Source: a phage. Taken from it: a stretch of DNA of 64,000 bases. Positions within the stretch are counted from its first letter, which is position 1. Every line of letters starts with the position of its first letter. Below the pieces are notes generated by a model. The model was given only the letters and a program-made list of their open reading frames with translations, was not told the origin of the DNA and did not search any database. The DNA lies in sequence record PZ386978.1; one strand, 5' to 3'. This document shows, one piece after another, positions 38,734 to 62,439 of this stretch. A program made the translations under genes and the position numbers.

Positions 38734-38805
38734 GAAACTTCGTAGTATATTCACAATAGACTAAGCCTTTCTTATCTGGTAAATTTCTCAGGTAAGGAGG
38801 GCTTT

Positions 38806-38992
38806 TTCATTTCAGAATTGTGCAGGTAGAGTTCTGTAGAGAAATCTATAGAGAAAATTTTGAACTCCAAAGAGAAAATTCATTTTCAAACTGTGCAGGT
38901 AATCTCCAAAGAGCTTTTTCATTTTCAAAACGTGCAGACCCCGCTCAGGTCGGGCAAGAAAAATCATTTTAGAATTGTGCAGGTAGGTGGGT
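38806..38992 (+). repeat. four direct repeats, consensus TTTTCATTTTCARAAYTGTGCAGGTA (iteron-like)
   Basis: Copies near 38814, 38879, 38926 and 38963, spaced ~45-65 bp, in the 500 bp non-coding gap upstream of the small-gene array. Confidence 0.6.
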
Positions 38993-39162
38993 GTAGGTGG
39001 GGCTGTCGCCATTTCTCACAAGGCTACCACATCTGGAAATAAAAGTCAACAGAAAAATTTGTAGCGGATTGAAAAATAATTCTTGATTGTAGTTCTGTTT
39101 TGTGGTAGTCGCGCGCACCCGTTTCATTACAATCTTTGCAAAAAATATTTTTAAAATTCCTA

Positions 39163-39191
39163 TTGACTCTTTGAGTATGGTTATCTAATAT
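39163..39191 (+). promoter_or_regulatory. sigma70-like promoter for the small-gene array
   Basis: TTGACT at 39163-39168, 17 nt spacer, TAATAT at 39186-39191. Confidence 0.55.
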
Positions 39192-39241
39192 TTGCATCAG
39201 ACGGGCAATCAAGCCCACTTCCTAAACTGGAGAATCTAAAA

Positions 39242-39448
39242 ATGCTTTACAGTCGTGAATTGATGGTTACAACTAACGTTAACACAAAGGTAAAACGTTT
39301 TTACATGCAAATTTGTGGCGTATGGTCTAGAATATCAGAGGCTGACTATTGCAACTATGTAGAAACAGCTATAAACTCTAATTGCTACCTTACAAGAAAT
39401 ACAAGAAAGTACATAAGACAGACAGCAATTTACTACTACGATAAATAA
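39242..39448 (+). CDS. hypothetical small protein (array ORF1)
   Basis: 68 aa; preceded by conserved leader CCTAAACTGGAGAATCTAAAAATG. Confidence 0.5.
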   Translation: MLYSRELMVTTNVNTKVKRFYMQICGVWSRISEADYCNYVETAINSNCYLTRNTRKYIRQTAIYYYDK

Positions 39449-39538
39449 AAAGTACTTTACAGGGGGCTTATAAGGCTGTACAGTAAGCCCCAGATAAAGA
39501 GCTTTACCACATTAACCCTTAAACTAGGAGATTCTAAA

Positions 39539-39919
39539 ATGGCATATCGCGCACCTAAATTCATCAATAAAGACAACTTTCGCAACGCACTGGAGAAGTC
39601 ACTTGATGAGAATTTTAAAGGCAACGTTATTGTTGTTCACTCGTTTAATTTCAAGTATGATATCAACGGGAATAAAATCAACCATTACACGGCAACCATG
39701 ATAGATGGTACACTATCAAGTGAAAAAGCCATTTTGCATGCACTTGCTGGACGTGGTAAAAAACTGATAAAATGCGATAAGAGACGTTATCAGGGTGGCG
39801 CATATGGTTATGATGATACTGTTTATCATCTTGAAAATATGGGCTATCAAGTAGAAAAAGCTGGAGTATCACAAATCATCGGGAGTGACGGCTATGTGAC
39901 AATCTTCAAAATTAAATAA
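39539..39919 (+). CDS. hypothetical protein (array ORF2)
   Basis: 126 aa; conserved leader upstream. Confidence 0.5.
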   Translation: MAYRAPKFINKDNFRNALEKSLDENFKGNVIVVHSFNFKYDINGNKINHYTATMIDGTLSSEKAILHALAGRGKKLIKCDKRRYQGGAYGYDDTVYHLENMGYQVEKAGVSQIIGSDGYVTIFKIK

Positions 39920-40007
39920 AAAGTACTTTACAGGGGGCTTATAGTTCGATAAAGTAAGCCCCAGATAAAGAGCTTTACCACTAAATCCTAAATTGGAGAT
40001 TCAAAAA

Positions 40008-40298
40008 ATGGCTATTATCAAAAACGTTGTAATTCCTGCAAAAACTCGTGATGACGCTCGCATCATGGCGAAAAAGTTAGGCGGGAAAGTGGTTGACAAT
40101 GGAAAACAATCTGCTGTAAGATGGGGTGTGAAGGCTGATAAACAGTTGAAGTTAAAAAATTCACCAATAAACCTTTTTACATGTGTAAACACTATCGGGA
40201 AGACAAATGTATACACGAAAAAGGCATATATTAGACGCGTAGCCTTAACATCTCCCATTCGTACAATGAGAAGCTATGCAAAGCTAAAAATTAACTGA
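40008..40298 (+). CDS. hypothetical protein (array ORF3)
   Basis: Start at MAIIKNVV right after conserved leader GGAGATTCAAAAA; track ORF begins 15 nt upstream inside the leader. Confidence 0.5.
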   Translation: MAIIKNVVIPAKTRDDARIMAKKLGGKVVDNGKQSAVRWGVKADKQLKLKNSPINLFTCVNTIGKTNVYTKKAYIRRVALTSPIRTMRSYAKLKIN

Positions 40299-40385
40299 TA
40301 AAGTACTTTACAGGGGGCTTAAAAGTTGATATCTTAAGCCCCAGATAAAGAGCTTTACCACTCAATCCTAAACTGGAGATTCAAA

Positions 40386-40898
40386 ATGAAGACTGTAGAC
40401 GCTACTTTTGAAGTTGTAAAAGAAAAATTCACTATTATTTATGAAGCGGTAAATTGCTACGAAGCAAGCCATAATCTTGATAATTGGAAGTTTACAGATG
40501 ACCATCAAGGCGGCGTGACTGTTAAAAATCCTAACTGTCAGCATAATGAATTTAAATATGCAATCCCTTTACATTACAGCCTTAAACAGCTTTCTAGTGA
40601 CTATGCAAAACAAGGCCGGGAAAATCCATCAAAAGAGGCTTACGCAAGCTTACAGAAAGAACTAGAAAGAGATTTAGAGGCTTCAGAGTACAACCTTGCC
40701 GCGAAAGTTGTCGATGCAAACGGTAACACGGTTTTAGAAAGTTTTTATCTTGGTTATGCTTTCGATTGGTGCTATCGTGACGGCGATGATTTAGAGGATA
40801 GACTAAAAGAAGAGGTGAACAATTCAGACGCAGAAACTGAAGTATTAGAACGTTTGGAATCGTTGAAAGACTCAGTGATGAATATCTTTAAGAACTAA
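40386..40898 (+). CDS. hypothetical protein (array ORF4)
   Basis: 170 aa; conserved leader upstream. Confidence 0.5.
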   Translation: MKTVDATFEVVKEKFTIIYEAVNCYEASHNLDNWKFTDDHQGGVTVKNPNCQHNEFKYAIPLHYSLKQLSSDYAKQGRENPSKEAYASLQKELERDLEASEYNLAAKVVDANGNTVLESFYLGYAFDWCYRDGDDLEDRLKEEVNNSDAETEVLERLESLKDSVMNIFKN

Positions 40899-40989
40899 AT
40901 AGATTTCTTTACACGGGGTTATCAAGCTGGTAGGATAGCCCCAGATAAAGAGATTTATCAAATAAAGCCCTTAAACTAGGAGATTCAAA

Positions 40990-41286
40990 ATGAAATTATC
41001 AAATAAAGTTCGTGAAAATCTAAGCAAGTTACTAAACAAAATTGATTTCATTGAAACATCAAGAAATAATCATGATGTTATGGAATGGTTGCACGGCAAA
41101 ATAAAAGGCCGTCGTGTAGTGATTTGCTTATGGAATAGCTGCAGGGAGTATAAAAAACCTGTATTGCAAGTCAATATTTATGATGACACCTTTAAAAGTC
41201 CTGTAAAGTCTAAAAGCGATTTATTAGAATCCTATGAGATAACTGTAAATGGTAAAGTGTCACGTAAAGAGGAAACACCATGCTGA
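40990..41286 (+). CDS. hypothetical protein (array ORF5)
   Basis: 98 aa; conserved leader upstream. Confidence 0.5.
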   Translation: MKLSNKVRENLSKLLNKIDFIETSRNNHDVMEWLHGKIKGRRVVICLWNSCREYKKPVLQVNIYDDTFKSPVKSKSDLLESYEITVNGKVSRKEETPC

Positions 41287-41612
41287 TGACTGGTATCACT
41301 GCAATCATTGCCATTTTCGCGCTCTATAAGGCATATAAAGCCTATAATCTAGCAAATAAGGCAATCACGCAGCAGGTTAGCAATAGCCTTGTAGAGAGCT
41401 TTCTAGAGCGCCTCAGTGATGAGCAAATAAAGCGGCTAGAGATGAGCTTCAGATATAAAGCGAAAACCTATCAGATAAGTGACATCTTCAAAGATGATTT
41501 TCAGTTAGTCGATGATTATAATTCACTGATAAATGCTTTAAATATCAGTGACTTAAAAGACTACTACGCTGTAATTGTTCAAGAATTGAGCAAACGAAAA
41601 CAAAGTGTTTGA
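41280..41612 (+). CDS. hypothetical membrane-anchored protein (array ORF6)
   Basis: Start overlaps the ORF5 stop (no repeat unit between); N-terminal hydrophobic helix. Confidence 0.45.
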   Translation: MLMTGITAIIAIFALYKAYKAYNLANKAITQQVSNSLVESFLERLSDEQIKRLEMSFRYKAKTYQISDIFKDDFQLVDDYNSLINALNISDLKDYYAVIVQELSKRKQSV

Positions 41613-41702
41613 CACTGGTTTTTAGATAGATTAAATTACACATCAACGGGGAGGTAATAACCTTCCCCACTAAATAAAGTCCTTAAACTAGGAGAGTCTA
41701 AA

Positions 41703-41975
41703 ATGTATACTACTAACAATGGTCGTACTTTAAATGTAACTTTACGTCACTATGTAGACGGTGTAATGCACTTTGAGGATTTACGGGCTGAACAACATAT
41801 CTTAGATTGGCAAGTAGCAGGACTCCAAAAAACTGCTACGGGATATGGTAAAAAGATTCCAACCAGTTGGAAAGTACACTACGAAGGACGTTTGCGCAGA
41901 ATTTATCAAGATGTATGTAGTAATAGCGCAGCAAGTTACATCATAGTAAAAGGTAAAAAACTGCACTTAGTATAA
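41703..41975 (+). CDS. hypothetical protein (array ORF7)
   Basis: 90 aa; type 2 leader upstream. Confidence 0.5.
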   Translation: MYTTNNGRTLNVTLRHYVDGVMHFEDLRAEQHILDWQVAGLQKTATGYGKKIPTSWKVHYEGRLRRIYQDVCSNSAASYIIVKGKKLHLV

Positions 41976-42060
41976 AGTGCTTTACATGGGGCTTAAAAGT
42001 CTGTAAAGTAAGCCCCAGATAAAGAGCTTTACCACTAAATCCTAAATTGGAGATTCTAAA

Positions 42061-42465
42061 ATGGCTATTAACAACCGTGAATTATCAATCTTAAAAGCAC
42101 GTTTGACCGTTAACCGGATTAATGTTATTACGTCATCAGCACCGGACGAAACATTACACAACATTATCGGGAAGATTCAAAGCGTTATCTTAGACGTTGA
42201 AAATGTAAAAAGCTCATTGGCTGACGTTGCAGCAGGTATCACGCTAGACGGTGCACAATATGAAATGGCTGACATGTTAGGCAAATCAAAGATAATGAAT
42301 AAAGAGCTTGATTTAAAAATGTTTCGATTTGCCGTGAAAGTGTGGCTATCCGTCGAGTATGACGCCAATTTTGCAATCGCTGATTTCTTTGCCACTTGGT
42401 TACAACGTAATTTGACAAATCACGATTTTCGTGATGTCTGTGATGCAATTTATGCAGAACTCTAA
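42061..42465 (+). CDS. hypothetical protein (array ORF8)
   Basis: 134 aa; type 1 leader upstream. Confidence 0.5.
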   Translation: MAINNRELSILKARLTVNRINVITSSAPDETLHNIIGKIQSVILDVENVKSSLADVAAGITLDGAQYEMADMLGKSKIMNKELDLKMFRFAVKVWLSVEYDANFAIADFFATWLQRNLTNHDFRDVCDAIYAEL

Positions 42466-42568
42466 AAATTTTATTGACACTGGTTTTTAGATAGATTAAA
42501 TTACACATCAACGGGGAGGTAATAACCTTCCCCACTAAATAAAGTCCTTAAACTAGGAGATTCTAAAA

Positions 42569-42772
42569 ATGGCTATTATTAATGGCTTAACCATTGAAAC
42601 TACACACATCAAAGATATTAAAGTTGGTGATATAGTCCTTTCCCACGGCGTAGAAAAAACTGTCACTGCAAAGGATATCAAAGAGGATTCTTTCATGGGT
42701 AGGACTCTCTTCGGTGATTCTTATTGCTTAGGTTATCTTGCAGTTTTAAAAGTTGTCAAAAATAACAAATAA
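42569..42772 (+). CDS. hypothetical protein (array ORF9)
   Basis: 67 aa; type 2 leader upstream. Confidence 0.5.
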   Translation: MAIINGLTIETTHIKDIKVGDIVLSHGVEKTVTAKDIKEDSFMGRTLFGDSYCLGYLAVLKVVKNNK

Positions 42773-42858
42773 AGTACTTTACAAGGGGCTTATAGTTCGA
42801 TAAAGTAAGCCCCAGATAAAGAGCTTTACCACTAAATCCTTAAACTAGGAGATTCAAA

Positions 42859-43425
42859 ATGAAATGCTATCACGGCACTACTCTGAAAAACTTTGTAAAC
42901 CTGCTTAAAGGTGGCGACAAGCCGGAAGGTATCTGGAACTGCTCTTACATGGATGATTGTTTTTACGTTTACCCGATGGATAAGATTATCAAGACGGAAT
43001 GCCTGGAAGATGAAGAAGCCTCTTACATCCGTGAACGCTGCATTCAAAACGCTTTAGAGTCGGGGCTTATTACGGCAGCTTTCCAAATGGAAACGCAGGA
43101 AGTGATTGTAATTGAGATGGATATCCCAGAGGAAGAACTTGAGGACGATTATTCTTGTGACAACATGAGCGAAATCGCCAGCTTTACCGGTTACTTTGAT
43201 AAAGATTGGATTATTGGTATTCACTCAACGAAATTTAGTGCAATGTATGCGCCATTCTTTGTACCTGATACAACTAACCTAAATTTGGGATATATTGACG
43301 ATGATTTGTTGAGTATTGCAAAAATTGTACAGAATAGCGGGGATACTTCTTCTTTGTTTTGTGACCTGCTGGATAAAATTACCGAGAATCTCACAGAGCG
43401 CAATCTAAGCGACTTTTTAGACTAA
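42859..43425 (+). CDS. hypothetical acidic protein (array ORF10)
   Basis: 188 aa; type 1 leader upstream. Confidence 0.5.
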   Translation: MKCYHGTTLKNFVNLLKGGDKPEGIWNCSYMDDCFYVYPMDKIIKTECLEDEEASYIRERCIQNALESGLITAAFQMETQEVIVIEMDIPEEELEDDYSCDNMSEIASFTGYFDKDWIIGIHSTKFSAMYAPFFVPDTTNLNLGYIDDDLLSIAKIVQNSGDTSSLFCDLLDKITENLTERNLSDFLD

Positions 43426-43488
43426 GCAGTACAAAGACACTAATTTCCAACTTAAGGCCCATACAGGGCCATTTAAAGGGCTTAAATC

Positions 43489-43722
43489 ATGCTTACAACC
43501 GTTTACCTTATCCTTTCTGTTTGTAATGGCCATTCATGTGACTTTAAAGGGCTTGAGGAGTTCACAGGAAGTAAAGAAAATACTATTCAAGTTTGCCAGA
43601 TAGCAAGACAAGACTACCCCGCCAGTGACGACATTCAATGCTACTTTAAGACAGAAGATGAAGACGGAATCTATTTTGACAGCGTTGACGGTCAATATGA
43701 AATTATCATAGAAAAAGATTAG
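43489..43722 (+). CDS. hypothetical protein (array ORF11)
   Basis: 77 aa; preceded by a different hairpin GGCCCATACAGGGCC. Confidence 0.45.
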   Translation: MLTTVYLILSVCNGHSCDFKGLEEFTGSKENTIQVCQIARQDYPASDDIQCYFKTEDEDGIYFDSVDGQYEIIIEKD

Positions 43723-43810
43723 ACAAGCCTGATAAAAGTCTGTAAATTGTCAATCAACGGGGGTAACAACCTCCCACTACATAAAACCCTTAAACTAGGA
43801 GATTCAAAAA

Positions 43811-44152
43811 ATGGCTTATGTAACTGTAATTACCAATAAACCGGATTCATCTTGGTCAACTCAAGTAAGCGACAAGATGTCACCTATGCAGTGCCTAAAA
43901 TACTTTGAGCAATGGAATAAAGGCGAGGATGTAAGCCCCTTTCAAATAATGCAGATTATTCATGTAGACAATGAAGGGAAGAAAACGACTCTGAACAGTG
44001 AGTACTATGCAAGCCGCTTCGAAACGAGAAGTAAAGCAATGAAGCTTCTACGTGAATCCGGTTATGCTCATATTGCCGCACTAATCTGGGATGACCTGCT
44101 AAAAAGTCAACGTATCAGCTATGTAAAGCCTGAAAAAATATTCATCAGTTAA
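43811..44152 (+). CDS. hypothetical protein (array ORF12)
   Basis: 113 aa; type 2 leader upstream. Confidence 0.5.
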   Translation: MAYVTVITNKPDSSWSTQVSDKMSPMQCLKYFEQWNKGEDVSPFQIMQIIHVDNEGKKTTLNSEYYASRFETRSKAMKLLRESGYAHIAALIWDDLLKSQRISYVKPEKIFIS

Positions 44153-44184
44153 TCAATAACTTACAAAAAACTTTTAAAAAAGTG

Positions 44185-44213
44185 TTGACAATACCCCTTG
44201 ACATTGGTAACTT
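44185..44213 (+). promoter_or_regulatory. possible internal sigma70-like promoter
   Basis: TTGACA at 44185-44190 (second TTGACA at 44198), 17 nt spacer, weak -10 TAACTT. Confidence 0.35.
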
Positions 44214-44371
44214 TGTTCGAGGGGGTTTATCTAAAAGGGATTCACTTAAAAGATTCTTTATAGATAAGCTTAAAAAATTGCTTGCAATCAGTTATCAAAA
44301 CAAGTAAATTACTAATCAACGGGAGGGATGACCTCCCCACTAAATAAAATCCTTAAACTAGGAGAGCCAAA

Positions 44372-44902
44372 ATGAACAAGTTTAAAGCTATCAACTTCAT
44401 TCGTTCAAATGCTGTAATGTCAAAACCTGTAAAAGACACATACGAATTTCGCTGCAATGGGGTACACTTTGCAACCATCACTAAGTCAGAAAACGGGGCT
44501 TATTACATTCATCGCCGTAATGTTTCTACTGTTGTAGTCTCTCACTTTATGCAAGCTGTAGCGGAATTATTACCATTATTCTTAGAGATTTATCTAGATG
44601 AGTGTAAAAACGTTCGTAACCACGTTAAAAACCTTTTAAACGGTTATAAAATGGCTTATGAACGTTCTATCAAGTCCTTAAACAAGTTCTATAAAGCCCC
44701 TATGAATACCGTTTCAATGGCTTACAGTGTAAGCGGTGAGTTGGTTAGCCTCTTCGAAGTGGAAGAAATAGAACTGCATGACTTGCGCCCTAGTGGTTAC
44801 TCTAAGACACTGGGAGAAGGCTTATCTTTCAATATCAAGAACTTAGAAAAAACTTTAAAAGATATTGAAAAAGATATTGACGAAACAATCAAAAGTCTGT
44901 AA
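44372..44902 (+). CDS. hypothetical protein (array ORF13)
   Basis: 176 aa; type 2 leader upstream. Confidence 0.5.
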   Translation: MNKFKAINFIRSNAVMSKPVKDTYEFRCNGVHFATITKSENGAYYIHRRNVSTVVVSHFMQAVAELLPLFLEIYLDECKNVRNHVKNLLNGYKMAYERSIKSLNKFYKAPMNTVSMAYSVSGELVSLFEVEEIELHDLRPSGYSKTLGEGLSFNIKNLEKTLKDIEKDIDETIKSL

Positions 44903-44968
44903 ATTGTTAATCAACGGGGAGGGAATGAACTTCCCCACTAAGTAAAGTCCTAAACTGGAGTTATCAAG

Positions 44969-45232
44969 ATGGAAAACGTAGAGTTAACCACACTTTTACA
45001 AATCGCAACCGACAAAGAAAACGTAGCATTATTACACCGCATTGAAAGCGATTTGTTCAATGGTGAAATCATCAAAGAGTCTTATGAAGTTGTTGGATTC
45101 AAAGATGGTAAAGCATTTGGATTCTTTGACCTCGACAAAGGCAACGCGGTTACAAAATATGATGTTTTATCTTGTGAGATTCTTACAAAATACAACGAAA
45201 AAAGGCTTGCAACTTACGACAACATGCAGTAA
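44969..45232 (+). CDS. hypothetical protein (array ORF14)
   Basis: 87 aa; type 2 leader upstream. Confidence 0.5.
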   Translation: MENVELTTLLQIATDKENVALLHRIESDLFNGEIIKESYEVVGFKDGKAFGFFDLDKGNAVTKYDVLSCEILTKYNEKRLATYDNMQ

Positions 45233-45311
45233 ATTACTAATCAACGGGGAGGGAATGAACTTCCCCACTAAACAAAACCCTTAATCAACTTCCTAAACTG
45301 GAGATTCTAAA

Positions 45312-45560
45312 ATGGCTACTATCCGCGCAACTGTTAACGAATTCGGCTTCTACTCTCTGGACGTTAAATTTGACCTTGTAGGTACTGATAACGCCTTTGA
45401 AATGGTGAAAGGCCTTATCATCCAGACCATCAGCGATTACAACCCCTCTGATGAATTCTGGAAAGAAACAAAAGAGGAAGTTCTCAAAGAGGGTTACACT
45501 TATCACTATTGGGGTGAAAAAATTGTATCCCTGTACTACGACAAAAAAGGCACTAACTAA
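45312..45560 (+). CDS. hypothetical protein (array ORF15)
   Basis: 82 aa; leader CCTAAACTGGAGATTCTAAAATG upstream; last gene of the plus-strand block. Confidence 0.5.
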   Translation: MATIRATVNEFGFYSLDVKFDLVGTDNAFEMVKGLIIQTISDYNPSDEFWKETKEEVLKEGYTYHYWGEKIVSLYYDKKGTN

Positions 45561-45598
45561 ACGCCGCAACGGGGCTAAATAGCCCCAGATACCTTTAC

Positions 45599-45620
45599 AG
45601 CCCCTTAAATGGGGCTTTTT
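45599..45620 (+). terminator. intrinsic terminator closing the plus-strand block
   Basis: GCCCCTTAAATGGGGC followed by TTTTTT. Confidence 0.6.
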
Positions 45621-47298
45621 TACGTCTATCAAATTCCTTTCCAGAATCTTAAAACCCACCTAACAAGTCAGAACTTTACCAGACCTTAAAAAGCAATAAC
45701 TCTATAGTCTACTCTATAGCCTTTTATCAAATCAACTGATTGGCATTGTTACCAATCCCTTAAATATAAGCCCATAACCCGAAAGGGAAGGGCAACCACT
45801 AAAATGCTCTATAAAGCTCTATAACAGCCTTATCAACCTAACTTAAGCAATCATATTAACCCACTCTAAAAAGCCCTTCCTAGAGCTTCCCAGAGCCTTA
45901 AAAGAATCTTATAAGGGGTGTAAGCTTTATCATCTCGTTAGTATTCTTGTGAACTACTATAAAGGGCTATGAGATAGGACTCTATGAGGGTAATTCATTA
46001 CCTGAATCACTATCGAATCCTATTGTTATTGTCTTAAAAGTATGTTATAGGGGCTTAAAAGTAGCTTAAAAGTTACGTAAAAGAGGCTATAAAGTTACGT
46101 AAATGCTAGCCCCCTTAACATTTTCTTAACAATTTCTTAACAAACCCTACATAGTTATGCTTGTTAGAGACTTGTTAGCCCCTTGTTAAATCTCTGTTAA
46201 GACCACGTAAAAGCCTTGTAAGAGTCTTTGGCATAGCCTTAAAAGCCACTGTAAAGCCCTATAAAGAGCTATCCATACAGTTGAGGGGTAAATACTAGGA
46301 AGATGCTTAAAAGAGCCTATAAAGAGTTATAGAGAGCTTTTAAGAGGTATGTTTAAGGAATCACTAAGAAAGGAAAGGGAACGATAAGAAAAGAGTAGTG
46401 ACCATGTTAATAGCTTGTTAAAAAGATTAAGCACTTGTTAGGAACTTGTTAATTATCTTAACAAAATAACTCTTTAAAATTAACTTGTTAGCTCTTGTTA
46501 GCCATCTGTTAAGCATCTGTAAAGACTATTCAGCACTTGTTAAGAATCTGTTACAACCTTGTTAGTTCTGTTAAGAAACTGTTAAGACCTTTGAAGAGAT
46601 GTTAAGAAGATGTTATGACTGTTAAGAGATTGTTAAGGATATTTTAAAATTTTGCAAAGGGGGTGTTAAGGGGCTGTTAAGGGCTACCAAGCAGATATAC
46701 ATCCTAATCAGATATTTTCAGTTCCTTCAAAGACCCTAAAAAATGACTTGATAGTCCTATTTTATAAAAATTTTAAAATTCTGGATAATTACCTAGACAG
46801 TCTTTTAAAATACAGGCAGAAACAGGCTTATAAGATACCTTGTTAGTACCGTGTTAGACCTTGTGAGATAAGGTCTGTAAAGATATTCCTGTTAAGTTTG
46901 TTAAAACAGTCTATATAGAGGCTTAGTAATACCTAGTGAACACCTATAGAGGGTATCATAGCTGACATAGAGATTAAGAGGTGTATAGGGGCTTCTAAGA
47001 GTGTGTAGAGAGATGGTTAAGGTGATTGTATAGGCTGTTAAGAAGGCTTGTTAGAAGAGTGTTTAGAAGGTTTGTTAGAGGGCTAGTTAGAAGGGTTATA
47101 CAGAGGGGCTATTAAGACCACTAGATAATTACTAAGATACTATATAGTACTATATAACTATATAGAGAGTAAGATTAAGAAGGTTGTTAAGAAGGGTAGA
47201 TATTTTATTCACATATGATGGTGACCCAGAGGTTGGGACAACCGATAAAATTTTATAAAAATTAAAAAGCCCCCAATTAAGGAGGCTCTTAAGATATT
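45621..47298. repeat. 1.7 kb ORF-free region densely populated with short YTGTTAR / CTATAAAG-type repeats
   Basis: No ORF of 60 aa or more on either strand in the supplied track; ~18 YTGTTAR copies at 46380-46680, more at 46130-46215 (both orientations) and 47030-47200; lies between convergent gene blocks. Confidence 0.65.
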
Positions 47299-47904
47299 TT
47301 AAATCAGTGTTTCCAGAACTGTTTTTAATGATGACTTGGTTGTCTGATAAAAATGAGTGAATCCGTTGTTGTTATCAAATATCTGCATCATAACAGCATC
47401 TCCCTTGATTGGGTACACTCGGATATCATAGTGAAACCCATTAAAGACAGCAGAACCGTTACAGAACACACTAAAATCATCCACTGAGATATACTCTTCA
47501 TGCCCTGTGATTTTTATACAGACACCTTTGCTCGGTCTCTTAGGGTTGATATCTTCCATCACAGACATATTCTGTCCACCAAGAGATACCATAGTGACCA
47601 CTTTACGGTTCTTCTGTTTAAAGTACATTTTAACTTTCTGTAAAGTGTCTTCATAGAACGGATAAGACTTCTCTACAAAGATTCCTTCTAATGGCTCTTT
47701 ACCATTTTCAACTTCTCTGTTATGCCGTACTGCAAAGATAATTTGTTCGAACCAGTCAAGATTTTCTTCGGAGAGTGCTTCTCGAACATCACTCCAGTCA
47801 AGTACTAGGTAGTTACCTTCAACTTCTTTTAAGTTATCTTTTTCCATAGCTGTCACACCATTATCGTAAAACTTGGTAGTCTGGTACTGCAAACTTGTTG
47901 TCAT
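47299..47904 (-). CDS. hypothetical protein
   Basis: 201 aa; first (3'-most) gene of minus-strand block. Confidence 0.5.
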   Translation of the reverse strand: MTTSLQYQTTKFYDNGVTAMEKDNLKEVEGNYLVLDWSDVREALSEENLDWFEQIIFAVRHNREVENGKEPLEGIFVEKSYPFYEDTLQKVKMYFKQKNRKVVTMVSLGGQNMSVMEDINPKRPSKGVCIKITGHEEYISVDDFSVFCNGSAVFNGFHYDIRVYPIKGDAVMMQIFDNNNGFTHFYQTTKSSLKTVLETLI

Positions 47905-57983: not shown

Positions 57984-58057
57984 CTCTGTTTAGCTCAGCT
58001 TGGTAGAGCGTTCCGTTTGGGGCGGTAAGGCCGGAGGTTCAAGTCCTCCAACAGAGA
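57984..58057 (+). tRNA. tRNA-Pro (anticodon UGG)
   Basis: Acceptor CTCTGTT/AACAGAG, D-arm GCTC..GAGC, anticodon loop TTTGGGG, T-arm GGAGGTTCAAGTCCTCC, CCA encoded. Confidence 0.7.
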
Positions 58058-58067
58058 CCAAATTAAT

Positions 58068-58142
58068 GTTCCAGTAGACAAAATGGTATAGTCACCACTC
58101 TTTCAAAGTGGATATTTGAGGGTTCAAATCCCTTCTGGAACG
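58068..58142 (+). tRNA. tRNA-Glu (anticodon UUC)
   Basis: Acceptor GTTCCAG/CTGGAAC, anticodon stem CCACT/AGTGG with loop CTTTCAA, T-loop TTCAAAT, CCA encoded. Confidence 0.7.
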
Positions 58143-58152
58143 CCAGTTTTGA

Positions 58153-58226
58153 CAGAAGACCAATTACAGCAAACTTAATCTTATTCATCTGAAGGTAAAT
58201 CGGACAAAGAAGAGATTTGGTCTGGT
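58153..58226 (+). ncRNA. conserved stem-closed element, copy 1
   Basis: CAGAAGACCAATTACAGCAA...ATTTGGTCTGG; stem AGACCAA/TTGGTCT. Confidence 0.4.
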
Positions 58227-58237
58227 CATTAAGAATT

Positions 58238-58310
58238 GCGGGTATAGAGAAAGGGCGTCTCACATGTCTCATTAGCATGGTATCGGCAGGTTCGACTCCT
58301 GCACCCGCCT
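58238..58310 (+). tRNA. tRNA-Met family (anticodon CAU; initiator, elongator or Ile-lysidine undetermined)
   Basis: D-stem GAGA/TCTC, anticodon stem CATGT/GCATG with loop CTCATTA, T-arm GCAGGTTCGACTCCTGC; acceptor boundary ambiguous by 1 nt. Confidence 0.6.
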
Positions 58311-58317
58311 CCAAATT

Positions 58318-58384
58318 TACAGAAGACCGTTTACAGCAATATTTATTAAATTTTTAGCGGAAAAATTGAAAGATACGGTCTGGT
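58318..58384 (+). ncRNA. conserved stem-closed element, copy 2
   Basis: CAGAAGACCGTTTACAGCAA...ATACGGTCTGG; stem AGACCGT/ACGGTCT (compensatory to copy 1). Confidence 0.4.
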
Positions 58385-58396
58385 AATACTAAACAT

Positions 58397-58470
58397 GGTT
58401 AGGAAGCACATAAGGTATGTGCGGTCGCCTGTTAAGCGAATGGCACAGGGTTCGAATCCCTGACTAACCG
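58397..58470 (+). tRNA. tRNA-Asn (anticodon GUU)
   Basis: Acceptor GGTTAGG/ACTAACC, D-stem GCAC/GTGC, anticodon loop CTGTTAA, T-arm CAGGGTTCGAATCCCTG, CCA encoded. Confidence 0.7.
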
Positions 58471-58542
58471 CCAAATTTAGGAGAGAAGCGATTGCTCACC
58501 GATTTGTAAGGTGCAAGTCCTTAGCCTGAATAGAAATTAAAT

Positions 58543-58627
58543 GTGTCGTTATCCCGTAGATGGTAGCGGTGGGGACTGTAAATCCCTTGTCATTGAGACT
58601 CGGTAGGTTCGACTCCTACACGGCACA
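58543..58627 (+). tRNA. tRNA-Tyr (anticodon GUA), long variable arm
   Basis: 85 nt; acceptor GTGTCGT/ACGGCAC, anticodon loop CTGTAAA, long variable arm, T-arm GTAGGTTCGACTCCTAC, CCA encoded. Confidence 0.65.
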
Positions 58628-58635
58628 CCAATAAA

Positions 58636-58710
58636 GGTTATGTAGTTTAATTTGGTTAAAATACTCCCCTGTCACGGGAGATGATGAGGGTTCAAATCCA
58701 TTCGTAACCG
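58636..58710 (+). tRNA. tRNA-Asp (anticodon GUC)
   Basis: Acceptor GGTTATG/CGTAACC, anticodon stem CTCCC/GGGAG with loop CTGTCAC, T-loop TTCAAAT, CCA encoded. Confidence 0.65.
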
Positions 58711-58773
58711 CCAATTTTGAGAGGGCTATTTAGCCCCTCCCTTAAAGAGTTCTTACGAGTATTCTTTAAAGGA

Positions 58774-58849
58774 GCAGAAGACCAAATACAGCAAGTTACT
58801 TAAAATTTCAAGCCAATTTAATTTTGAAAAATTTAAAACTTGGTCTGGC
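58774..58849 (+). ncRNA. conserved stem-closed element, copy 3
   Basis: CAGAAGACCAAATACAGCAA...CTTGGTCTGG; stem AGACCAA/TTGGTCT. Confidence 0.4.
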
Positions 58850-58860
58850 TCAACAAATTT

Positions 58861-58993
58861 ACAGAAGACCGTTTACAGCAAAACTTAAACAATCTATTTC
58901 TCGGTAAAGAAAAGGCGAAGGTTCGATTCCTTCACTCGGCAGATGTCGAGTTGGTGTAATGGTAGCACTTAAGATGATAAACAACGGTCTGGT
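58861..58993 (+). ncRNA. conserved stem-closed element, copy 4, with an embedded permuted tRNA-like segment
   Basis: CAGAAGACCGTTTACAGCAA...AACGGTCTGG; interior has T-arm GAAGGTTCGATTCCTTC + ACTCGGC directly followed by GTCGAGT + D-arm-like GGTGTAATGGTAGCAC. Confidence 0.4.
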
Positions 58994-59136
58994 AATTATC
59001 TTTGTAGATAAGTTATTAAGCTTACCTGTGAGTATGCGACCACAAAGGGTGAAGGGTAAATTCTAGATTTAAACCCAAAAAGGCACATCGCTACAGACCT
59101 TAAGCAAGTCTGGGTAGCTTATCTACAAAGATAATT
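58994..59136 (+). repeat. 19 bp perfect inverted repeat enclosing ~105 nt
   Basis: AATTATCTTTGTAGATAAG at 58994-59012 and its exact reverse complement CTTATCTACAAAGATAATT at 59118-59136. Confidence 0.6.
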
Positions 59137-59140
59137 TAAT

Positions 59141-59213
59141 GGAAGTGTAGCAGAATGGTGATGCGGCAGACTTTTAATCTGACAGGCGATGGGTTCGAAT
59201 CCCTCCACTTCTA
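59141..59213 (+). tRNA. tRNA-Lys (anticodon UUU)
   Basis: Acceptor GGAAGTG/CACTTCT, anticodon loop CTTTTAA, T-loop TTCGAAT, CCA encoded; paralogue of tRNA at 60730. Confidence 0.6.
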
Positions 59214-59220
59214 CCAATAT

Positions 59221-59294
59221 GGTTCAGTCGCAGATAAGGTAATGCAAGGGTCTCATAAGCCCTATGAATGTGGGTTCGATTCCCATCTGAACCT
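59221..59294 (+). tRNA. tRNA-Met family, second copy (anticodon CAU)
   Basis: Acceptor GGTTCAG/CTGAACC, anticodon stem AGGGT/GCCCT with loop CTCATAA, T-loop TTCGATT, CCA encoded. Confidence 0.65.
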
Positions 59295-59298
59295 CCAA

Positions 59299-59371
59299 GC
59301 TGGTATAGTTAAGAAGGTTATAACACTCCCCTGATAAGGGAACATCGGTGGTTCGATTCCACCTACCAGTA
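59299..59371 (+). tRNA. tRNA-Ile (anticodon GAU)
   Basis: Acceptor GCTGGTA/TACCAGT, D-stem GTTA/TAAC, anticodon loop CTGATAA, T-arm GGTGGTTCGATTCCACC, CCA encoded. Confidence 0.7.
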
Positions 59372-59389
59372 CCAATTTCAATAAAGTTG

Positions 59390-59418
59390 TTGACATTGAG
59401 ATGTGACTACTTTATAGT
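59390..59418 (+). promoter_or_regulatory. sigma70-like promoter inside tRNA cluster
   Basis: TTGACA 59390-59395, 17 nt spacer, TATAGT 59413-59418. Confidence 0.55.
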
Positions 59419-59622
59419 AACCTTAGTTTTCGTTGCGTAGCGTCTATTTTGCAAATTTAAAATAAATGCAAACGACAATGTTTTTCTGGCAGTAGCTTGA
59501 TAGGCTAAACACCAGTGAGGTCTTCCAATCCCTCATCAAAGAATTTGGCGTACTAGCCCACGGTATGATTAATAAGGTGGGCATCTTTAAGGGCTTTCTA
59601 AGAGAGTCTTTAAAGATAATTA

Positions 59623-59701
59623 CGGGGCGTATCTCAGCTGTCTTCTAAACAGCCGTTAATCGAGTAAGTGGAGTATGCGGGTTCGAGTCCTGCCGCCTCG
59701 A
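59623..59701 (+). ncRNA. atypical tRNA-like gene (acceptor + T-arm + anticodon-like hairpin with loop CTTCTAA; no recognisable D-arm)
   Basis: Acceptor CGGGGCG/CGCCTCG, T-arm GCGGGTTCGAGTCCTGC, hairpin GCTGT-CTTCTAA-ACAGC (would read UCU, Arg), 22 nt extra segment, CCA encoded. Confidence 0.4.
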
Positions 59702-59718
59702 CCAATTTTGGAGAAATC

Positions 59719-60066
59719 ATGAAAACTTGTATTAGGTGCAAACTCAGCAAGGATGAAAATGATTTCTACATGAAAGATGGTAGGAGAACTCATTCATACT
59801 GTAAAAAGTGTGTTAATGAGCAAACCATAGAAAGACAAAGAGCACTTAAACTCTCAGCTATTGAGTACAAAGGTGGGGTTTGTCACGATTGTGGTAAAAA
59901 GTATCATCCAGCAGTGTATGACTTCCATCATTTGAATCCTTCAGATAAAGATTTTAACATTGGTCATAGGAAAAGCCTTAAGTTCTCTCAAGAACTAAAA
60001 GATGAACTTGACAAATGTGTTTTGCTATGTTCAAATTGCCATAGGGTAAGACATGCAAAGTATTAG
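59719..60066 (+). CDS. HNH endonuclease within tRNA cluster
   Basis: Start at MKTCIRCK with GGAG SD (track start 59668 overlaps the upstream tRNA-like gene); zinc-finger cysteines and HNH core DFHHLNP...CSNCHRVRH. Confidence 0.7.
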   Translation: MKTCIRCKLSKDENDFYMKDGRRTHSYCKKCVNEQTIERQRALKLSAIEYKGGVCHDCGKKYHPAVYDFHHLNPSDKDFNIGHRKSLKFSQELKDELDKCVLLCSNCHRVRHAKY

Positions 60067-60203
60067 TTAGCAGATTACTTAGACGACCTTAGCGGGTCTC
60101 CGTGTAGGGAGGTGGTCTGTATCTCATGTTTTCCAGAACATGTAAATAATCTGAGAAGGGGCTTTACAGTGTTGAGATAATACGGTAAGCTTCGAATTAT
60201 AGT

Positions 60204-60283
60204 GTGGGACGATGTTAAGACTCTAAGGCATGAGCAACGGCCTCCAAAACCGTTTCAAAGGGGTTCAACTCCTCCGTCCCATG
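60204..60283 (+). tRNA. tRNA-Trp (anticodon CCA), 5' boundary uncertain
   Basis: Anticodon loop CTCCAAA, T-loop TTCAACT, acceptor GTGGGAC/GTCCCAT, CCA encoded; D-region longer than canonical. Confidence 0.5.
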
Positions 60284-60299
60284 CCAAAGTCTTATTAGG

Positions 60300-60387
60300 G
60301 GTAGGTAGCGGCTAATGGCAGCCAAACAGTCTTGAAAACTGTTGCCACTGTAGAGATACGGTGAGGGTTCGACTCCTTTACTTACCG
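60300..60387 (+). tRNA. tRNA-Ser (anticodon UGA), long variable arm
   Basis: 88 nt; acceptor GGTAGGT/ACTTACC, anticodon stem ACAGT/ACTGT with loop CTTGAAA, long variable arm, T-loop TTCGACT. Confidence 0.65.
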
Positions 60388-60644
60388 CCTAATAAGATTT
60401 AAAGCCAAGCTTCATTCGGATGTTGCTTTGGTATCACTCGTGTATTGTCGTACACACTGATAAAACACTTAGTAGGTGTCACGGAGAAGAGATAATATCA
60501 AGCTCTCCAAAGGTTCTAGTCACCGGATTAAACAAGACTATGCAAAGACCTTTTTAGGTCTTTTTAGAGGGCTTCTAAGGTTATTACAGCTTGTTGTGGA
60601 ACCTTGTTGCTTAGGTTCTTAGAAGTTCTCTAAAAAGATTTAAT

Positions 60645-60719
60645 GGGAGATTGATGGTAATTGGTAAACCTATCTCGCTTAGAACGAGATGTTTGAGGGT
60701 TCGAATCCCTTGTCTCCTA
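60645..60719 (+). tRNA. tRNA with anticodon UAG (Leu by anticodon) but short variable arm
   Basis: Anticodon stem TCTCG/CGAGA with loop CTTAGAA, T-arm GAGGGTTCGAATCCCTT, acceptor GGGAGAT/GTCTCCT, CCA encoded; 5 nt variable loop. Confidence 0.5.
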
Positions 60720-60729
60720 CCAAATTAAT

Positions 60730-60802
60730 GCAGGTGTAGCAAAATGGTTATGCGGCTGACTCTTAATCAGTAAGACGATGGGTTCAATTCCCTCCACCTG
60801 TA
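60730..60802 (+). tRNA. tRNA-Lys (anticodon CUU)
   Basis: Acceptor GCAGGTG/CACCTGT, anticodon loop CTCTTAA, T-loop TTCAATT, CCA encoded. Confidence 0.6.
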
Positions 60803-60811
60803 CCAGACATT

Positions 60812-60884
60812 GGGGTCATAGTTTATATGGTTAAAATTCGAGTTTTGCAAACTTGGGAACTGAGTTCAATTCTCAGTGACTCCA
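60812..60884 (+). tRNA. tRNA-Ala (anticodon UGC)
   Basis: Acceptor GGGGTCA/TGACTCC, anticodon loop TTTGCAA, T-arm CTGAGTTCAATTCTCAG, CCA encoded. Confidence 0.65.
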
Positions 60885-60893
60885 CCAATTAGT

Positions 60894-60965
60894 GCATCCA
60901 TAGTTTAAACGGGAAAATTACAGTCTTCCAAACTGAGGTTGAGGGTTCGATTCCCTCTGGATGCT
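60894..60965 (+). tRNA. tRNA-Gly (anticodon UCC)
   Basis: Acceptor GCATCCA/TGGATGC, anticodon loop CTTCCAA, T-arm GAGGGTTCGATTCCCTC, CCA encoded. Confidence 0.7.
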
Positions 60966-60975
60966 CCAAATTAAT

Positions 60976-61048
60976 GCTCCTATCGTATAATCGGCTATTA
61001 CGGTTGCCTTGTAAGCAACTTATCAGGGTTCGAATCCTTGTGGGAGCA
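60976..61048 (+). tRNA. tRNA-Thr (anticodon UGU)
   Basis: Acceptor GCTCCTA/TGGGAGC, anticodon stem GTTGC/GCAAC with loop CTTGTAA, T-loop TTCGAAT, CCA encoded. Confidence 0.7.
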
Positions 61049-61054
61049 CCAATT

Positions 61055-61143
61055 CAGAGGTCAAGTGAAAGACCGCTGGTGTCAACTGAAGACCGTAACA
61101 AATTCCACGGAGTTGAGTTAGCGGCACAACTTCAGACCTCTTT
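61055..61143 (+). ncRNA. large hairpin element between tRNAs
   Basis: Outer stem CAGAGGTC / GACCTCTT enclosing ~75 nt that contains CTGAAGACCGTAACAA (related to the CAGAAGACC elements) and inner stem TGAAG/CTTCA. Confidence 0.35.
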
Positions 61144-61146
61144 CAT

Positions 61147-61218
61147 ACTCGCTTAGTTTATATGGTAAAACATCACCCTTACAAGATGAAGAAAAAGGTT
61201 CAAGTCCTTTAGTGAGTA
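61147..61218 (+). tRNA. tRNA-Val (anticodon UAC)
   Basis: Acceptor ACTCGCT/AGTGAGT, D-stem GTTT/AAAC, anticodon loop CTTACAA, T-arm AAAGGTTCAAGTCCTTT, CCA encoded. Confidence 0.65.
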
Positions 61219-61222
61219 CCAT

Positions 61223-61297
61223 GTTCCAGTATCCCAATTGGCAGAGGATGCAAGCTCAAACCTTGTATTAGTGACGGTTCGAATCCGTCTTGGAACA
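61223..61297 (+). tRNA. tRNA with anticodon CAA (Leu by anticodon) but short variable arm
   Basis: Acceptor GTTCCAG/TTGGAAC, anticodon stem GCAAG/CTTGT with loop CTCAAAC, T-arm GACGGTTCGAATCCGTC, 75 nt, CCA encoded. Confidence 0.5.
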
Positions 61298-61305
61298 CCA
61301 ATTTT

Positions 61306-61378
61306 GCAGGATTAGTTCAAATGGATAGAGCAACAGTCTACGAAACTGTTAATAGGGGTTCGAATCCCTTATCCTGCG
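61306..61378 (+). tRNA. tRNA-Arg (anticodon ACG)
   Basis: Acceptor GCAGGAT/ATCCTGC, anticodon stem ACAGT/ACTGT with loop CTACGAA, T-loop TTCGAAT, CCA encoded. Confidence 0.7.
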
Positions 61379-61399
61379 CCAGATAAGCAAGAGGAATTT

Positions 61400-61642
61400 A
61401 TGCAAACATTAACCGTCGTTGAACATGAAAATTCCAATAGTATTGAGTTTGTAAGGGTTCCCACTATAGATACCCACATTTTCTTAAAAGTCGGATGGGA
61501 ATGCGACCCAATAAAAGTAGAAAGATTTATTGGTCATTGCTTTGGTGGAAGACAACTTAAAAGTGTCAATTTTGAGACAATGTTGCCAGAAAGCTCAGAA
61601 ACAAATAATAATGCTTACCTCCTTACGAGGGTTAGACAATGA
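61400..61642 (+). CDS. hypothetical protein within tRNA cluster
   Basis: 80 aa ORF between tRNA genes; coding status uncertain. Confidence 0.3.
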   Translation: MQTLTVVEHENSNSIEFVRVPTIDTHIFLKVGWECDPIKVERFIGHCFGGRQLKSVNFETMLPESSETNNNAYLLTRVRQ

Positions 61643-62196: not shown

Positions 62197-62204
62197 AGAT
62201 TTAA

Positions 62205-62277
62205 AGGGGATTAGTTTACAAGGTTAAAACCTCGGTCTTTGAAATCGAAGAAGTTGGTTCAATTCCAACATCCCCCG
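62205..62277 (+). tRNA. tRNA-Gln (anticodon UUG)
   Basis: D-stem GTTT/AAAC, anticodon loop CTTTGAA, T-arm GTTGGTTCAATTCCAAC, acceptor 3' ATCCCCC, CCA encoded. Confidence 0.65.
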
Positions 62278-62282
62278 CCAAT

Positions 62283-62358
62283 GCTCCATTACTCCAATTG
62301 GCAGAGAGGCCAGACTTAAAATCTGTGTTATGTATCGGTTCGAATCCGATATGGAGTA
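62283..62358 (+). tRNA. tRNA with anticodon UAA (Leu by anticodon) but short variable arm
   Basis: Acceptor GCTCCAT/ATGGAGT, anticodon loop CTTAAAA, T-arm ATCGGTTCGAATCCGAT, 76 nt, CCA encoded. Confidence 0.5.
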
Positions 62359-62366
62359 CCAAATTT

Positions 62367-62439
62367 AGCGGTATAGCATAACTGGCAATGCAACAGTCTC
62401 TGAAGCTGTCCTATTAAGGTTCAAATCCTTATGCCGCTG
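62367..62439 (+). tRNA. tRNA-Gln (anticodon CUG)
   Basis: Acceptor AGCGGTA/TGCCGCT, D-stem GCAT/ATGC, anticodon loop CTCTGAA, T-arm TAAGGTTCAAATCCTTA, CCA encoded. Confidence 0.65.

Follow-up and report, generated by a model that had tools for sequence, protein, structure and literature searches.

A stretch of phage DNA of 64,000 nucleotides (nt; sequence record PZ386978.1, here called the window) contains, at 39100-45620, an array of small genes separated by repeated intergenic units, which is the subject of this analysis. The window derives from a Felixounavirus (subfamily Ounavirinae), that is, a Felix O1-like myovirus, and the array region matches 256 phage records, with 88-94% identity to AYO145A, Mushroom, bumzen, Meda and others. 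Fifteen open reading frames (ORFs) of 67-188 amino acids (aa), all on the + strand, span 39242-45560, and 13 of the 15 genes are preceded by an 82-108 bp unit with no copies elsewhere in the 64 kb. We consider it likely that this is an early-gene region built of portable promoter/stem-loop/leader cassettes that are shuffled by recombination between the units. As an earlier sequence-only reading of this DNA had stated, the small genes lack recognisable domains: the ORF list agrees, no Pfam domain was found above threshold in any of the 15 proteins, each of which falls in a PHROG of unknown function, and a PDB sequence search with four of the largest yielded no relative. The anti-defence or host-takeover role that the same reading proposed for them is pure conjecture, the searches having given neither a domain nor a family name nor a solved relative.

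Two families of units with putative promoters

Computational repeat finding recovered both repeat families, and together with pattern counts it bears out the conserved hairpin-plus-leader units described earlier. In the 64-kb window the pattern GGGGCTTA-N13-TAAGCCCC has five exact matches (0.06 expected), TAAATT-N4-ATCAACGGGG has six (0.49 expected) and CCTTAAACTAGGAGATTC seven (0.07 expected), and matches to all three lie exclusively on the + strand at 39.4-45.3 kb. The units comprise six of type A, six of type B and one variant, B', before gene 1; both types finish in a common leader, GGAG-N7-9-ATG. The strict alternation of two types that had been claimed is absent, the order from gene 1 to gene 15 being B',A,A,A,A,-,B,A,B,A,-,B,B,B,B. 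Genes 6 and 11 have no unit. Gene 6 overlaps gene 5 and forms with it a two-gene cassette, and gene 11 is separated from gene 10 by a short spacer (63 nt, 43426-43491) with a different hairpin (GGCCC-ATACA-GGGCC), a poor Shine-Dalgarno (SD) sequence, no promoter-like site and no unit; genes 10 and 11 travel jointly in all relatives compared, as another two-gene cassette.

The composition of the units is richer than 'hairpin plus leader'. Both of these parts stand, and a sigma-70-type promoter had been overlooked, such that the supposed leader is promoter plus 5' untranslated region. All 13 units carry -35 and -10 hexamers at 17-bp spacing, 11 of them scoring at least 9/12. Type A units have the layout AAAGTAC-TTTACA-N-GGGGCTTA-(13-nt loop)-TAAGCCCC-AGATAAAGAGCTTTACC-...-CCT(T)AAAYT(A)GGAGA-N7-9-ATG, with a putative promoter TTTACA (-35)-N17-TAnnnT (-10) whose spacer contains the GGGGCTTA/TAAGCCCC hairpin and whose -10 consists of the last five loop bases and the first T of the 3' arm. 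All six copies score 9/12 in a single register with the 17-bp spacer in a scan for the sigma-70 consensus. The 38 distinct Felixounavirus type A units show no variation in TTTACA, in the T and A with which the -10 opens, in the GGGG/CCCC core or in AGATAAAGAG; conservation of the T that closes the -10 exceeds 90%, while the remaining loop positions vary. TTTACA-N17-TAnnnT is kept despite different loops in phages of Erwinia (Kolesnikvirus), of Citrobacter and Shigella (Mooglevirus) and in SUSP1 (Suspvirus), where the -10 takes the forms TAGTAT, TAATCT and TAAGAT. Judged from these sequences, such conservation is the footprint expected for a sigma-70 promoter and not for an RNA-structure loop.

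In type B units, the order is (TTGACA, TAGACA, TTGCAA or TTGACG)-N17-TAAATT-N4-ATCAAC-hairpin-ACTAARTAAAG-leader, and comparison with units of relatives showed TAAATT and ATCAAC to be invariant. The hairpin begins 10 nt past the -10, which places it at the 5' end predicted for the transcript. The preceding gene reaches into several copies, its 3' end containing the -35 and spacer and its stop codon falling in the -35 or -10. Five of the seven type B or B' units reach at least 9/12 in the sigma-70 scan with 17-bp spacer; those at 44282 and 45207 have TTGCAA-N17-TAAATT. The stem originally reported as CGGGGAGG...CCTCCCC is usually GGGGAGG(G)/CCTTCCCC with a G.U pair. In bumzen, the gene-1 (B') promoter is joined to a canonical type B hairpin. 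We considered and set aside a possible mini-ORF of the type B loop (ATG ACC TTC CCC ACT AAG TAA), variants with ATA indicating that it is not conserved.

Annotation and expression data from relatives also bear on these sites. In the GenBank records of AYO145A and ASO1B, type B sites are independently annotated as a promoter followed by a 'terminator', and in Felix O1 the array ORFs 16, 20, 21 and 22 were maximal 5 min after infection in reverse transcription PCR (PMC3185647). The same Felix O1 paper lists the 57-bp type A and 39-bp type B cores merely as 'direct repeats' (PMC3185647), and the units go unmentioned in the wV8 paper and in a Felixounavirus comparative paper. On the strength of their sequence, promoter activity of the units is quite likely. 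Because each unit holds a putative promoter whose critical bases are the unit's most conserved part, most array genes are probably autonomous transcription units and not segments of one processed polycistron.

The hairpins as RNA structure

The type A regions have predicted folding energies (dG) of -21.6 to -25.1 kcal/mol with z-scores of -4.4 to -6.0 (for the gene-8 unit, an extended hairpin at 41969-42034 with -24.1 kcal/mol and z -4.4), and the inner stems have -7 to -17 kcal/mol. Pairing in type A continues past the GC stem through a 3x3 internal loop, beyond which TAAAGTACTTTA on the -35 side pairs with TAAAGAGCTTTA at the start of the downstream message, giving a predicted ~19-20 bp with 3x3 and 1x1 internal loops. 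This structure is backed by covariation. With the fixed flanks as anchors for the pairs, a set of 65 distinct type A units (four genera, 19 pairs each) gave 1101 Watson-Crick, 105 G.U, 4 A.C and 25 other cells. Five pair positions show compensatory switches, four among the 19 counted and one a stem position adjoining the loop; the switches include a G-C to U-A switch in the GC core of Erwinia type A units (GGTG.../...CACC) and another in the outer helix of the gene-5 units, whose flanks are not self-palindromic yet are mutually complementary. In the window's own gene-5 unit, the outer flanks TAGATTTCTTTA and TAAAGAGATTTA are complementary via compensatory changes. Flank-anchored counts and per-sequence folding replaced an alignment-based count, since MAFFT had put the shorter stem variants (gene-5 type A, short type B) out of register and covariation was thereby under-reported.

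Among type B units, 37 distinct hairpins with 15 different stems of 4-8 bp gave 225 Watson-Crick, 14 G.U and no A.C pairs. When the two strands were folded, the sense strand gave the better structure in 53 of 74 type A and 27 of 37 type B units. Covariation of the hairpins, which the sequence-only reading had proposed as a check, was thus found, along with an excess of G.U on the sense strand. Since the stems covary and G.U is far commoner than A.C (105 versus 4), the sequences point to selection of the stems as sense-strand RNA structure. No Rfam family was found for the units: at gathering score the window yields tRNAs only, and within 38.6-47.2 kb the best matches are microRNA-precursor models (E 0.26-0.44), far under their gathering scores.

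The hairpins had also been described as devoid of U-tracts and hence unlike canonical terminators, and a terminator scan agrees, flagging no unit. T-run terminators on the + strand were found just at 38763-38804 and 45599-45616, plus one chance intragenic site, so that both array boundaries carry a T-run and no unit hairpin does; the sequence 3' of the hairpin is AGATAAAGAG in type A and ACTAAATAAAG in type B.

Nearly all leaders have a further small feature: a complement of the SD lies 6 nt 5' of it (UCCU-UAAACU-AGGA or UCC-UAAACU-GGA, for instance at 42545-42558 and 39220-39233), with Erwinia counterparts CCUU-AUA-AAGG and CCUC-AAA-GAGG. We have not built on this SD-pairing hairpin, which is weak (-1 to -4 kcal/mol over all, -1 to -2.4 kcal/mol for the UCCU-UAAACU-AGGA form) and represented essentially by two linked alleles.

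Cassette turnover among relatives and features around the array

For comparison we used 20 further Ounavirinae loci (21 genomes in all), and indels were located by ungapped chaining against 13 relatives, which resolved junctions that gapped BLAST chaining had hidden. The array is hyperplastic, much more so than control DNA: at least 80% of it is covered in one collinear place in 16 of 256 records, versus 216 of 273 and 200 of 258 for two control regions of equal size in the window. The two ends of a whole-gene indel fall in units of one type, which overlap in 44-69 nt of homology; such unit-by-unit junctions were seen for gene 2, genes 2 and 3, genes 9-11, gene 14 and the gene inserted in SflM_004. 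Gene 14 is absent from eight of the first 13 relatives (-330), the junction joining the B units at 44877 and 45207 with a 56-nt overlap. Junctions between two type A units account for the absence of gene 2 from tootiki (-473) and of genes 2 and 3 from Felix O1 (-471 and -379), which also lacks genes 9-11 through a type B by type B junction (-1242); in SflM_004 an extra gene (+333) lies between two A units. In AYO145A, bumzen and GEC_NS7, where gene 1 is absent (about -284), the gene 1 promoter is fused to the gene 2 leader, and in MBP4696116 genes 13-15 are absent (-1245) from a type B hairpin to CAACGGGG before the final terminator.

The units at indel junctions are visibly chimeric, and the crossover intervals vary in position within units, from -7 to +93. 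When one gene is followed over the 21 genomes, the unit in front of it changes in loop allele, in leader allele and even in type, and each of the four possible pairings of loop and leader allele is present. The 188-aa gene has a type A unit in Felixounavirus and a type B unit in Mijalis; Sf19 and SUSP1 have type A before the 113-aa gene, which type B precedes here. Erwinia phage Panisse has a permuted gene order. Shuffling of cassettes at unit boundaries, as anticipated by the sequence-only reading, is in this way directly visible in relatives as indels, chimeric junctions and reassortment of alleles and types. Homologous recombination between units is possible because they are near-identical repeats, and very probably it drives cassette turnover. 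We also considered import of cassettes from unrelated phages, for which gene 14 (123 records) and ASO1B_017 provide no cross-family evidence, both occurring in Ounavirinae only.

Coordinates of the units, genes and other features in and beside the array (positions in the window)
Feature	Position	Strand	Remarks
Macro-domain protein, 261 aa	37948-38733		last gene of upstream operon; Pfam Macro, E 1e-7; PHROG 'phosphatase'
Canonical intrinsic terminator	38763-38812	+	17-bp stem and T-run; closes upstream operon
Unit B', gene 1	39163-39244	+	TTGACT-N17-TAATAT, ATCAGAC, then hairpin (GGGC-AATCAA-GCCC, 39203-39216), leader CCTAAACTGGAG-N8-ATG
Gene 1, 68 aa	39242-39448	+	phrog_5293; missing in AYO145A, bumzen, GEC_NS7
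Type A unit, gene 2	39456-39541	+	TTTACA-N17-TACAGT; hairpin 39463-39491, then AGATAAAGAGCTTTACC, leader
Gene 2, 126 aa	39539-39919	+	missing in tootiki, Felix O1, ASO1B, Mijalis
Type A unit, gene 3	39927-40010	+	-10 TAAAGT; hairpin 39934-39962
Gene 3, 96 aa	40008-40298	+	C-terminal allele swapped up to unit boundary in several relatives
Type A unit, gene 4	40307-40388	+	-10 TATCTT preceded by TG; hairpin 40314-40342
Gene 4, 170 aa	40386-40898	+	
Divergent type A unit, gene 5	40908-40992	+	stem GGGGTTAT/ATAGCCCC; -10 TAGGAT
Genes 5 (98 aa) and 6 (110 aa)	40990-41612	+	overlap 41280-41286; gene 6 at 41280-41612
Type B unit, gene 7	41609-41705	+	TTGACA-N17-TAAATT, ACACATCAAC, hairpin (GGGGAGG-TAATAA-CCTTCCCC, 41648-41668), ACTAAATAAAG, leader
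Gene 7, 90 aa	41703-41975	+	
Type A unit, gene 8	41981-42063	+	hairpin 41988-42016
Gene 8, 134 aa	42061-42465	+	
Type B unit, gene 9	42474-42571	+	99% identity to the 41609 unit
Gene 9, 67 aa	42569-42772	+	missing in Felix O1; another gene at this place in Mooglevirus and Suspvirus
Type A unit, gene 10	42778-42861	+	hairpin 42785-42813, identical to the 39934 hairpin
Genes 10 (188 aa) and 11 (77 aa)	42859-43722	+	gene 11 at 43489-43722
Type B unit, gene 12	43720-43813	+	TAGACA-N17-TAAATT; hairpin GGGGGT-AACA-ACCTCC; gene 11 stop codon inside -35
Gene 12, 113 aa	43811-44152	+	
Extra promoter-like site	44185-44225	+	TTGACA-N17-TAACTT; CCCC...GGGGG inverted repeat around -10
Type B unit, gene 13	44282-44374	+	TTGCAA-N17-TAAATT; hairpin GGGAGG-GATGA-CCTCCC
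Gene 13, 176 aa	44372-44902	+	
Type B unit, gene 14	44877-44971	+	TTGACG-N17-TAAATT; promoter-like hexamers within 3' end of gene 13
Gene 14, 87 aa	44969-45232	+	facultative cassette
Type B unit, gene 15	45207-45314	+	TTGCAA-N17-TAAATT; longer leader
Gene 15, 82 aa	45312-45560	+	
Unit-like array end	45571-45622	+	hairpin GGGGCTAAATAGCCCC, then AGATAC-CTTTACA, then canonical terminator
Canonical terminator, array end	45599-45622	+	hairpin GCCCCTTAAATGGGGC and T6

Several features lie beside or between the cassettes. The two terminators that bracket the array appear in the Felix O1 paper as t13 (upstream) and t23 (downstream) (PMC3185647). The array end itself seems to be unit-derived, CAACGGGGCTAAATAGCCCCAGATA resembling the start of a type B unit joined to a type A 3' arm, with CTTTACA immediately 5' of the canonical terminator hairpin. 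Within the array, the extra promoter-like site belongs to a conserved non-coding stretch of ~130 nt (44153-44281) 5' of the gene-13 unit, which is nearly identical in Mijalis (locus L016, 7195-7330); some relatives annotate an ORF of 38-46 aa there, and in AYO145A the site carries a promoter annotation. This stretch could be a tandem promoter or a small RNA.

Upstream, the gap between the first terminator and the array's first promoter is occupied by four direct repeats of ~26 nt (38798-38990; consensus TTTTCATTTTCAAWYTGTGCAGGT; spacing 39-73 bp), and the same repeat array recurs at the matching place in Erwinia phage Panisse (locus L015, ~2600-2760) and Citrobacter phage Mijalis (L016, ~2870-3060); these could be iterons or regulator-binding sites. 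The macro-domain gene preceding them, labelled O-acetyl-ADP-ribose deacetylase in one relative, encodes a candidate ADP-ribose-processing or counter-defence enzyme. Past the array, ~1.7 kb (45620-47350) hold no convincing ORF and show several small indels among relatives. Repeat regions are annotated in the equivalent segment of bumzen, tootiki, allfine and nataliec, and the GenBank records of dune, BPS15Q2, Sf19 and NBEco005 begin or finish in or beside it; genome termini or a replication origin may lie here. Farther on, 57984-63553 contain 23 tRNA genes in a + strand cluster typical of Felix O1-like phages.

Interpretation and comparison with known systems

In the reading that we favour, a cassette would consist of a ~90-bp composite unit (host sigma-70 promoter, GC-rich stem-loop and GGAG leader) followed by one or two small ORFan genes. 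Transcripts of a gene downstream of a type A unit would begin just beyond the hairpin, at about AGAUAAAG, and incoming transcripts from upstream would fold the whole element into an imperfect hairpin of ~60 nt. In type B, the hairpin would be the 5'-terminal stem-loop of the gene's own mRNA, presumably protecting it against 5'-end-dependent decay, and would double as a 3' structure for incoming transcripts. By attenuating or processing read-through and stabilising the 3' ends of upstream messages, as seems most likely, the hairpins would leave each gene insulated, and the canonical terminators at 38.8 and 45.6 kb would delimit the whole domain. Recombination between units, within a phage or between co-infecting phages, would delete, insert, swap and re-promote cassettes with expression intact. 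That the hairpins act at the RNA level, as attenuators, processing sites or end-stabilisers and not as terminators, we regard as reasonably likely; for the more specific role of type B hairpins as 5'-terminal stabilisers we hold the chances to be even. The latter role recalls ompA-type 5'-terminal stem-loops, reportedly described as mRNA stabilisers by Emory, Bouvet & Belasco in 1992: the GC-rich type B hairpin lies ~2-4 nt from the predicted start, a geometry said to block 5'-end-dependent decay by RNase E, with the difference that the type B start is predicted from the position of the -10 only.

Type A units allow an additional and bolder proposal, which we think rather unlikely, namely that they are dual-route mRNA start sites. 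The promoter would lie inside the ~60-nt hairpin, in whose lower helix the downstream message has its first ~15 nt paired to the -35 region, and read-through RNA would be cut in the 3x3 internal loop, for instance by RNase III. If so, the cut would give the upstream mRNA a protective 3' hairpin and the downstream mRNA a 5' end (AGAUAAAG...) almost the same as that made from the promoter. Expression of a cassette would then be identical from its own or a neighbour's promoter, hence context-independent, and the higher conservation of the unit flanks compared with the genes would be accounted for.

A number of observations weigh against the cassette interpretation and its parts. The -10 hexamers agree with consensus at just 4/6 positions, type A combines a GC-rich discriminator with a hairpin-forming spacer, either of which could make its promoter weak, and promoter-like sites over the region number 37 versus 24.7 in shuffles (standard deviation 4.7), a modest excess. 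The neural-network predictor used by the Felix O1 authors called no promoters at the unit sites, and the array ORFs 14, 17, 19 and 23 of that phage peak at 25 min, not 5 min (PMC3185647). A literature search returned no transcript 5'- or 3'-end mapping for Ounavirinae (Felix O1-like and Ea21-4-like phages), and in the library searched nothing turned up for this subfamily on measured promoter or terminator activity or on excised mini-circles. As for structure, Felixounavirus alone offers thin covariation, with 97% of cells paired and one compensatory pair in the alignment-based count; most of the G.U counts go back to a few old substitutions that many units have inherited, and the related sequences entering the covariation counts are not independent. 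Finally, surviving indels must fall between genes, where nearly all the space is unit, so unit-bounded breakpoints are partly expected without any special role of the units.

Phage T7 has RNase III processing sites between its early genes, with no promoters inside the sites, and offers a model for a different reading of the array: a single polycistronic early transcript from the 39163 promoter, cut and stabilised at the hairpins, with the hexamers incidental. Type A units share with the T7 sites a (here predicted) long imperfect hairpin with internal loops, lacking a U-tract and lying between small early genes, which in T7 leaves the upstream mRNA with a protective 3' hairpin. Their predicted imperfect duplex of ~20 bp, interrupted by a 3x3 internal loop at 8-9 bp from the terminal loop, has the general shape of an RNase III substrate, the weak Rfam matches are all to models of a long hairpin shape (microRNA precursors), and the absence of T-runs and the G.U bias, which indicates that the structure works as RNA, also fit. 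Yet processing does not predict that the loop bases invariant across genera should be -12T, -11A and -7T, fixed 17 bp from an invariant TTTACA, and type B hairpins, at 4-8 bp, are too short for RNase III and follow, at a fixed distance of 10 nt, an invariant TAAATT that has TTGACA-like boxes 17 bp before it. We judge a lone processed polycistron distinctly unlikely, though processing of read-through RNA could occur alongside the promoters, the two roles not being exclusive. There is a similarly small chance that the hairpins are plain transcription terminators ending the mRNA of each gene, the interpretation given to stem-loops of the promoter-early stem-loop (PeSL) cassettes of T4-like myoviruses. 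They are stable and GC-rich, in ASO1B and KhF3 the type B hairpins are annotated, on the basis of WebGeSTer, as rho-independent terminators, and a PeSL stem-loop cut downstream lacZ as strongly as rrnB T1 (PMC2839356). However, the phage uses textbook hairpin-plus-T6 terminators at both array ends, whereas the unit hairpins are followed by AGATAAAGAG or ACTAAATAAAG; efficient intrinsic termination at them is unlikely because they have no T-run and because, in type B, a terminator 10 nt past the promoter would abort the gene's own transcript.

We also weighed a role of the hairpins as DNA. Integrons are tandem sets of small exchangeable, promoterless genes with attC sites, imperfect inverted repeats that fold on one strand; a tyrosine-recombinase integrase is encoded next to them, and crossover is site-specific, at a fixed point of the folded bottom strand. 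The array resembles them in its tandem small exchangeable genes bounded by imperfect inverted repeats. The hairpins might then be cruciform or single-stranded sites for a dedicated recombinase or nuclease, attC-like, or else symmetric repressor operators; each type A flank, TAAAG-nn-CTTTA, is itself nearly palindromic, and the PeSL authors speculated on a recombination protein binding GGGG...CCCC (PMC2839356/PMC4122927). The strand asymmetry is unexpected for a duplex, a cruciform or a symmetric operator, and points to structure read as coding-strand RNA; moreover, the flanks of the gene-5 units have lost self-symmetry and are still complementary to each other. Crossovers are scattered within the units, as in homologous rather than site-specific exchange, and the cassettes, unlike those of integrons, have putative promoters of their own. 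No recombinase or integrase was found among the annotated genes flanking the array in 20 relatives, a search that left the window's own ORFs outside the array unscanned. A DNA-level role appears very improbable.

The closest precedent for the cassette reading is provided by the PeSLs themselves (Arbiol, Comeau & Krisch 2010, PMC2839356; Comeau et al. 2014, PMC4122927), which both express and shuffle small accessory genes (PMC2839356, PMC4122927). They too are composite intergenic elements with a sigma-70-like early promoter (17-bp spacer), a stable stem-loop, often GGGG...CCCC, an SD and an ATG; their stem-loop either sits between the two hexamers or covers the -10, which are the type A positions, or follows closely on the -10, the type B position. 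A TTTAC-type -35, as in the T4/PST pair, and G.T pairs in the stems are further points in common, as are the clustering of the elements between small ORFans in hyperplastic regions and the ORF indels or replacements among close relatives with junctions in the elements. The present units differ in belonging to another lineage, the Felix O1-like Ounavirinae, and in being far more stereotyped, with two sharp families, conserved flanks (AGATAAAGAGCTTTACC; ATCAAC...ACTAARTAAAG) and a near-identical leader. Pairing in type A also reaches ~12 bp past the GC stem, making a lower helix in which the -35 box is one side and the downstream mRNA's first 15 nt are the other, and promoter activity, terminator activity and mini-circles were demonstrated by experiment for PeSLs, whereas here the case is made at the sequence level. 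The phenomenon is not new in kind, since it matches these elements (PMC2839356, PMC4122927): in architecture and behaviour the units are of the PeSL kind, in another subfamily, with no new kind of mechanism.

What the array adds is that the PeSL principle, described in T4-like phages, extends to a subfamily that is unrelated to them and has been heavily sampled (more than 250 genomes). Repeats listed without interpretation in the Felix O1 genome paper gain a concrete reading, and the odd GenBank annotations of a promoter immediately followed by a terminator are resolved. With their stereotyped units and many relatives, these phages are suited to measuring recombination between regulatory linkers, and the system should be useful for describing the pan-genome of accessory early genes in phages applied to Salmonella and E. 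coli biocontrol and for building portable expression cassettes.

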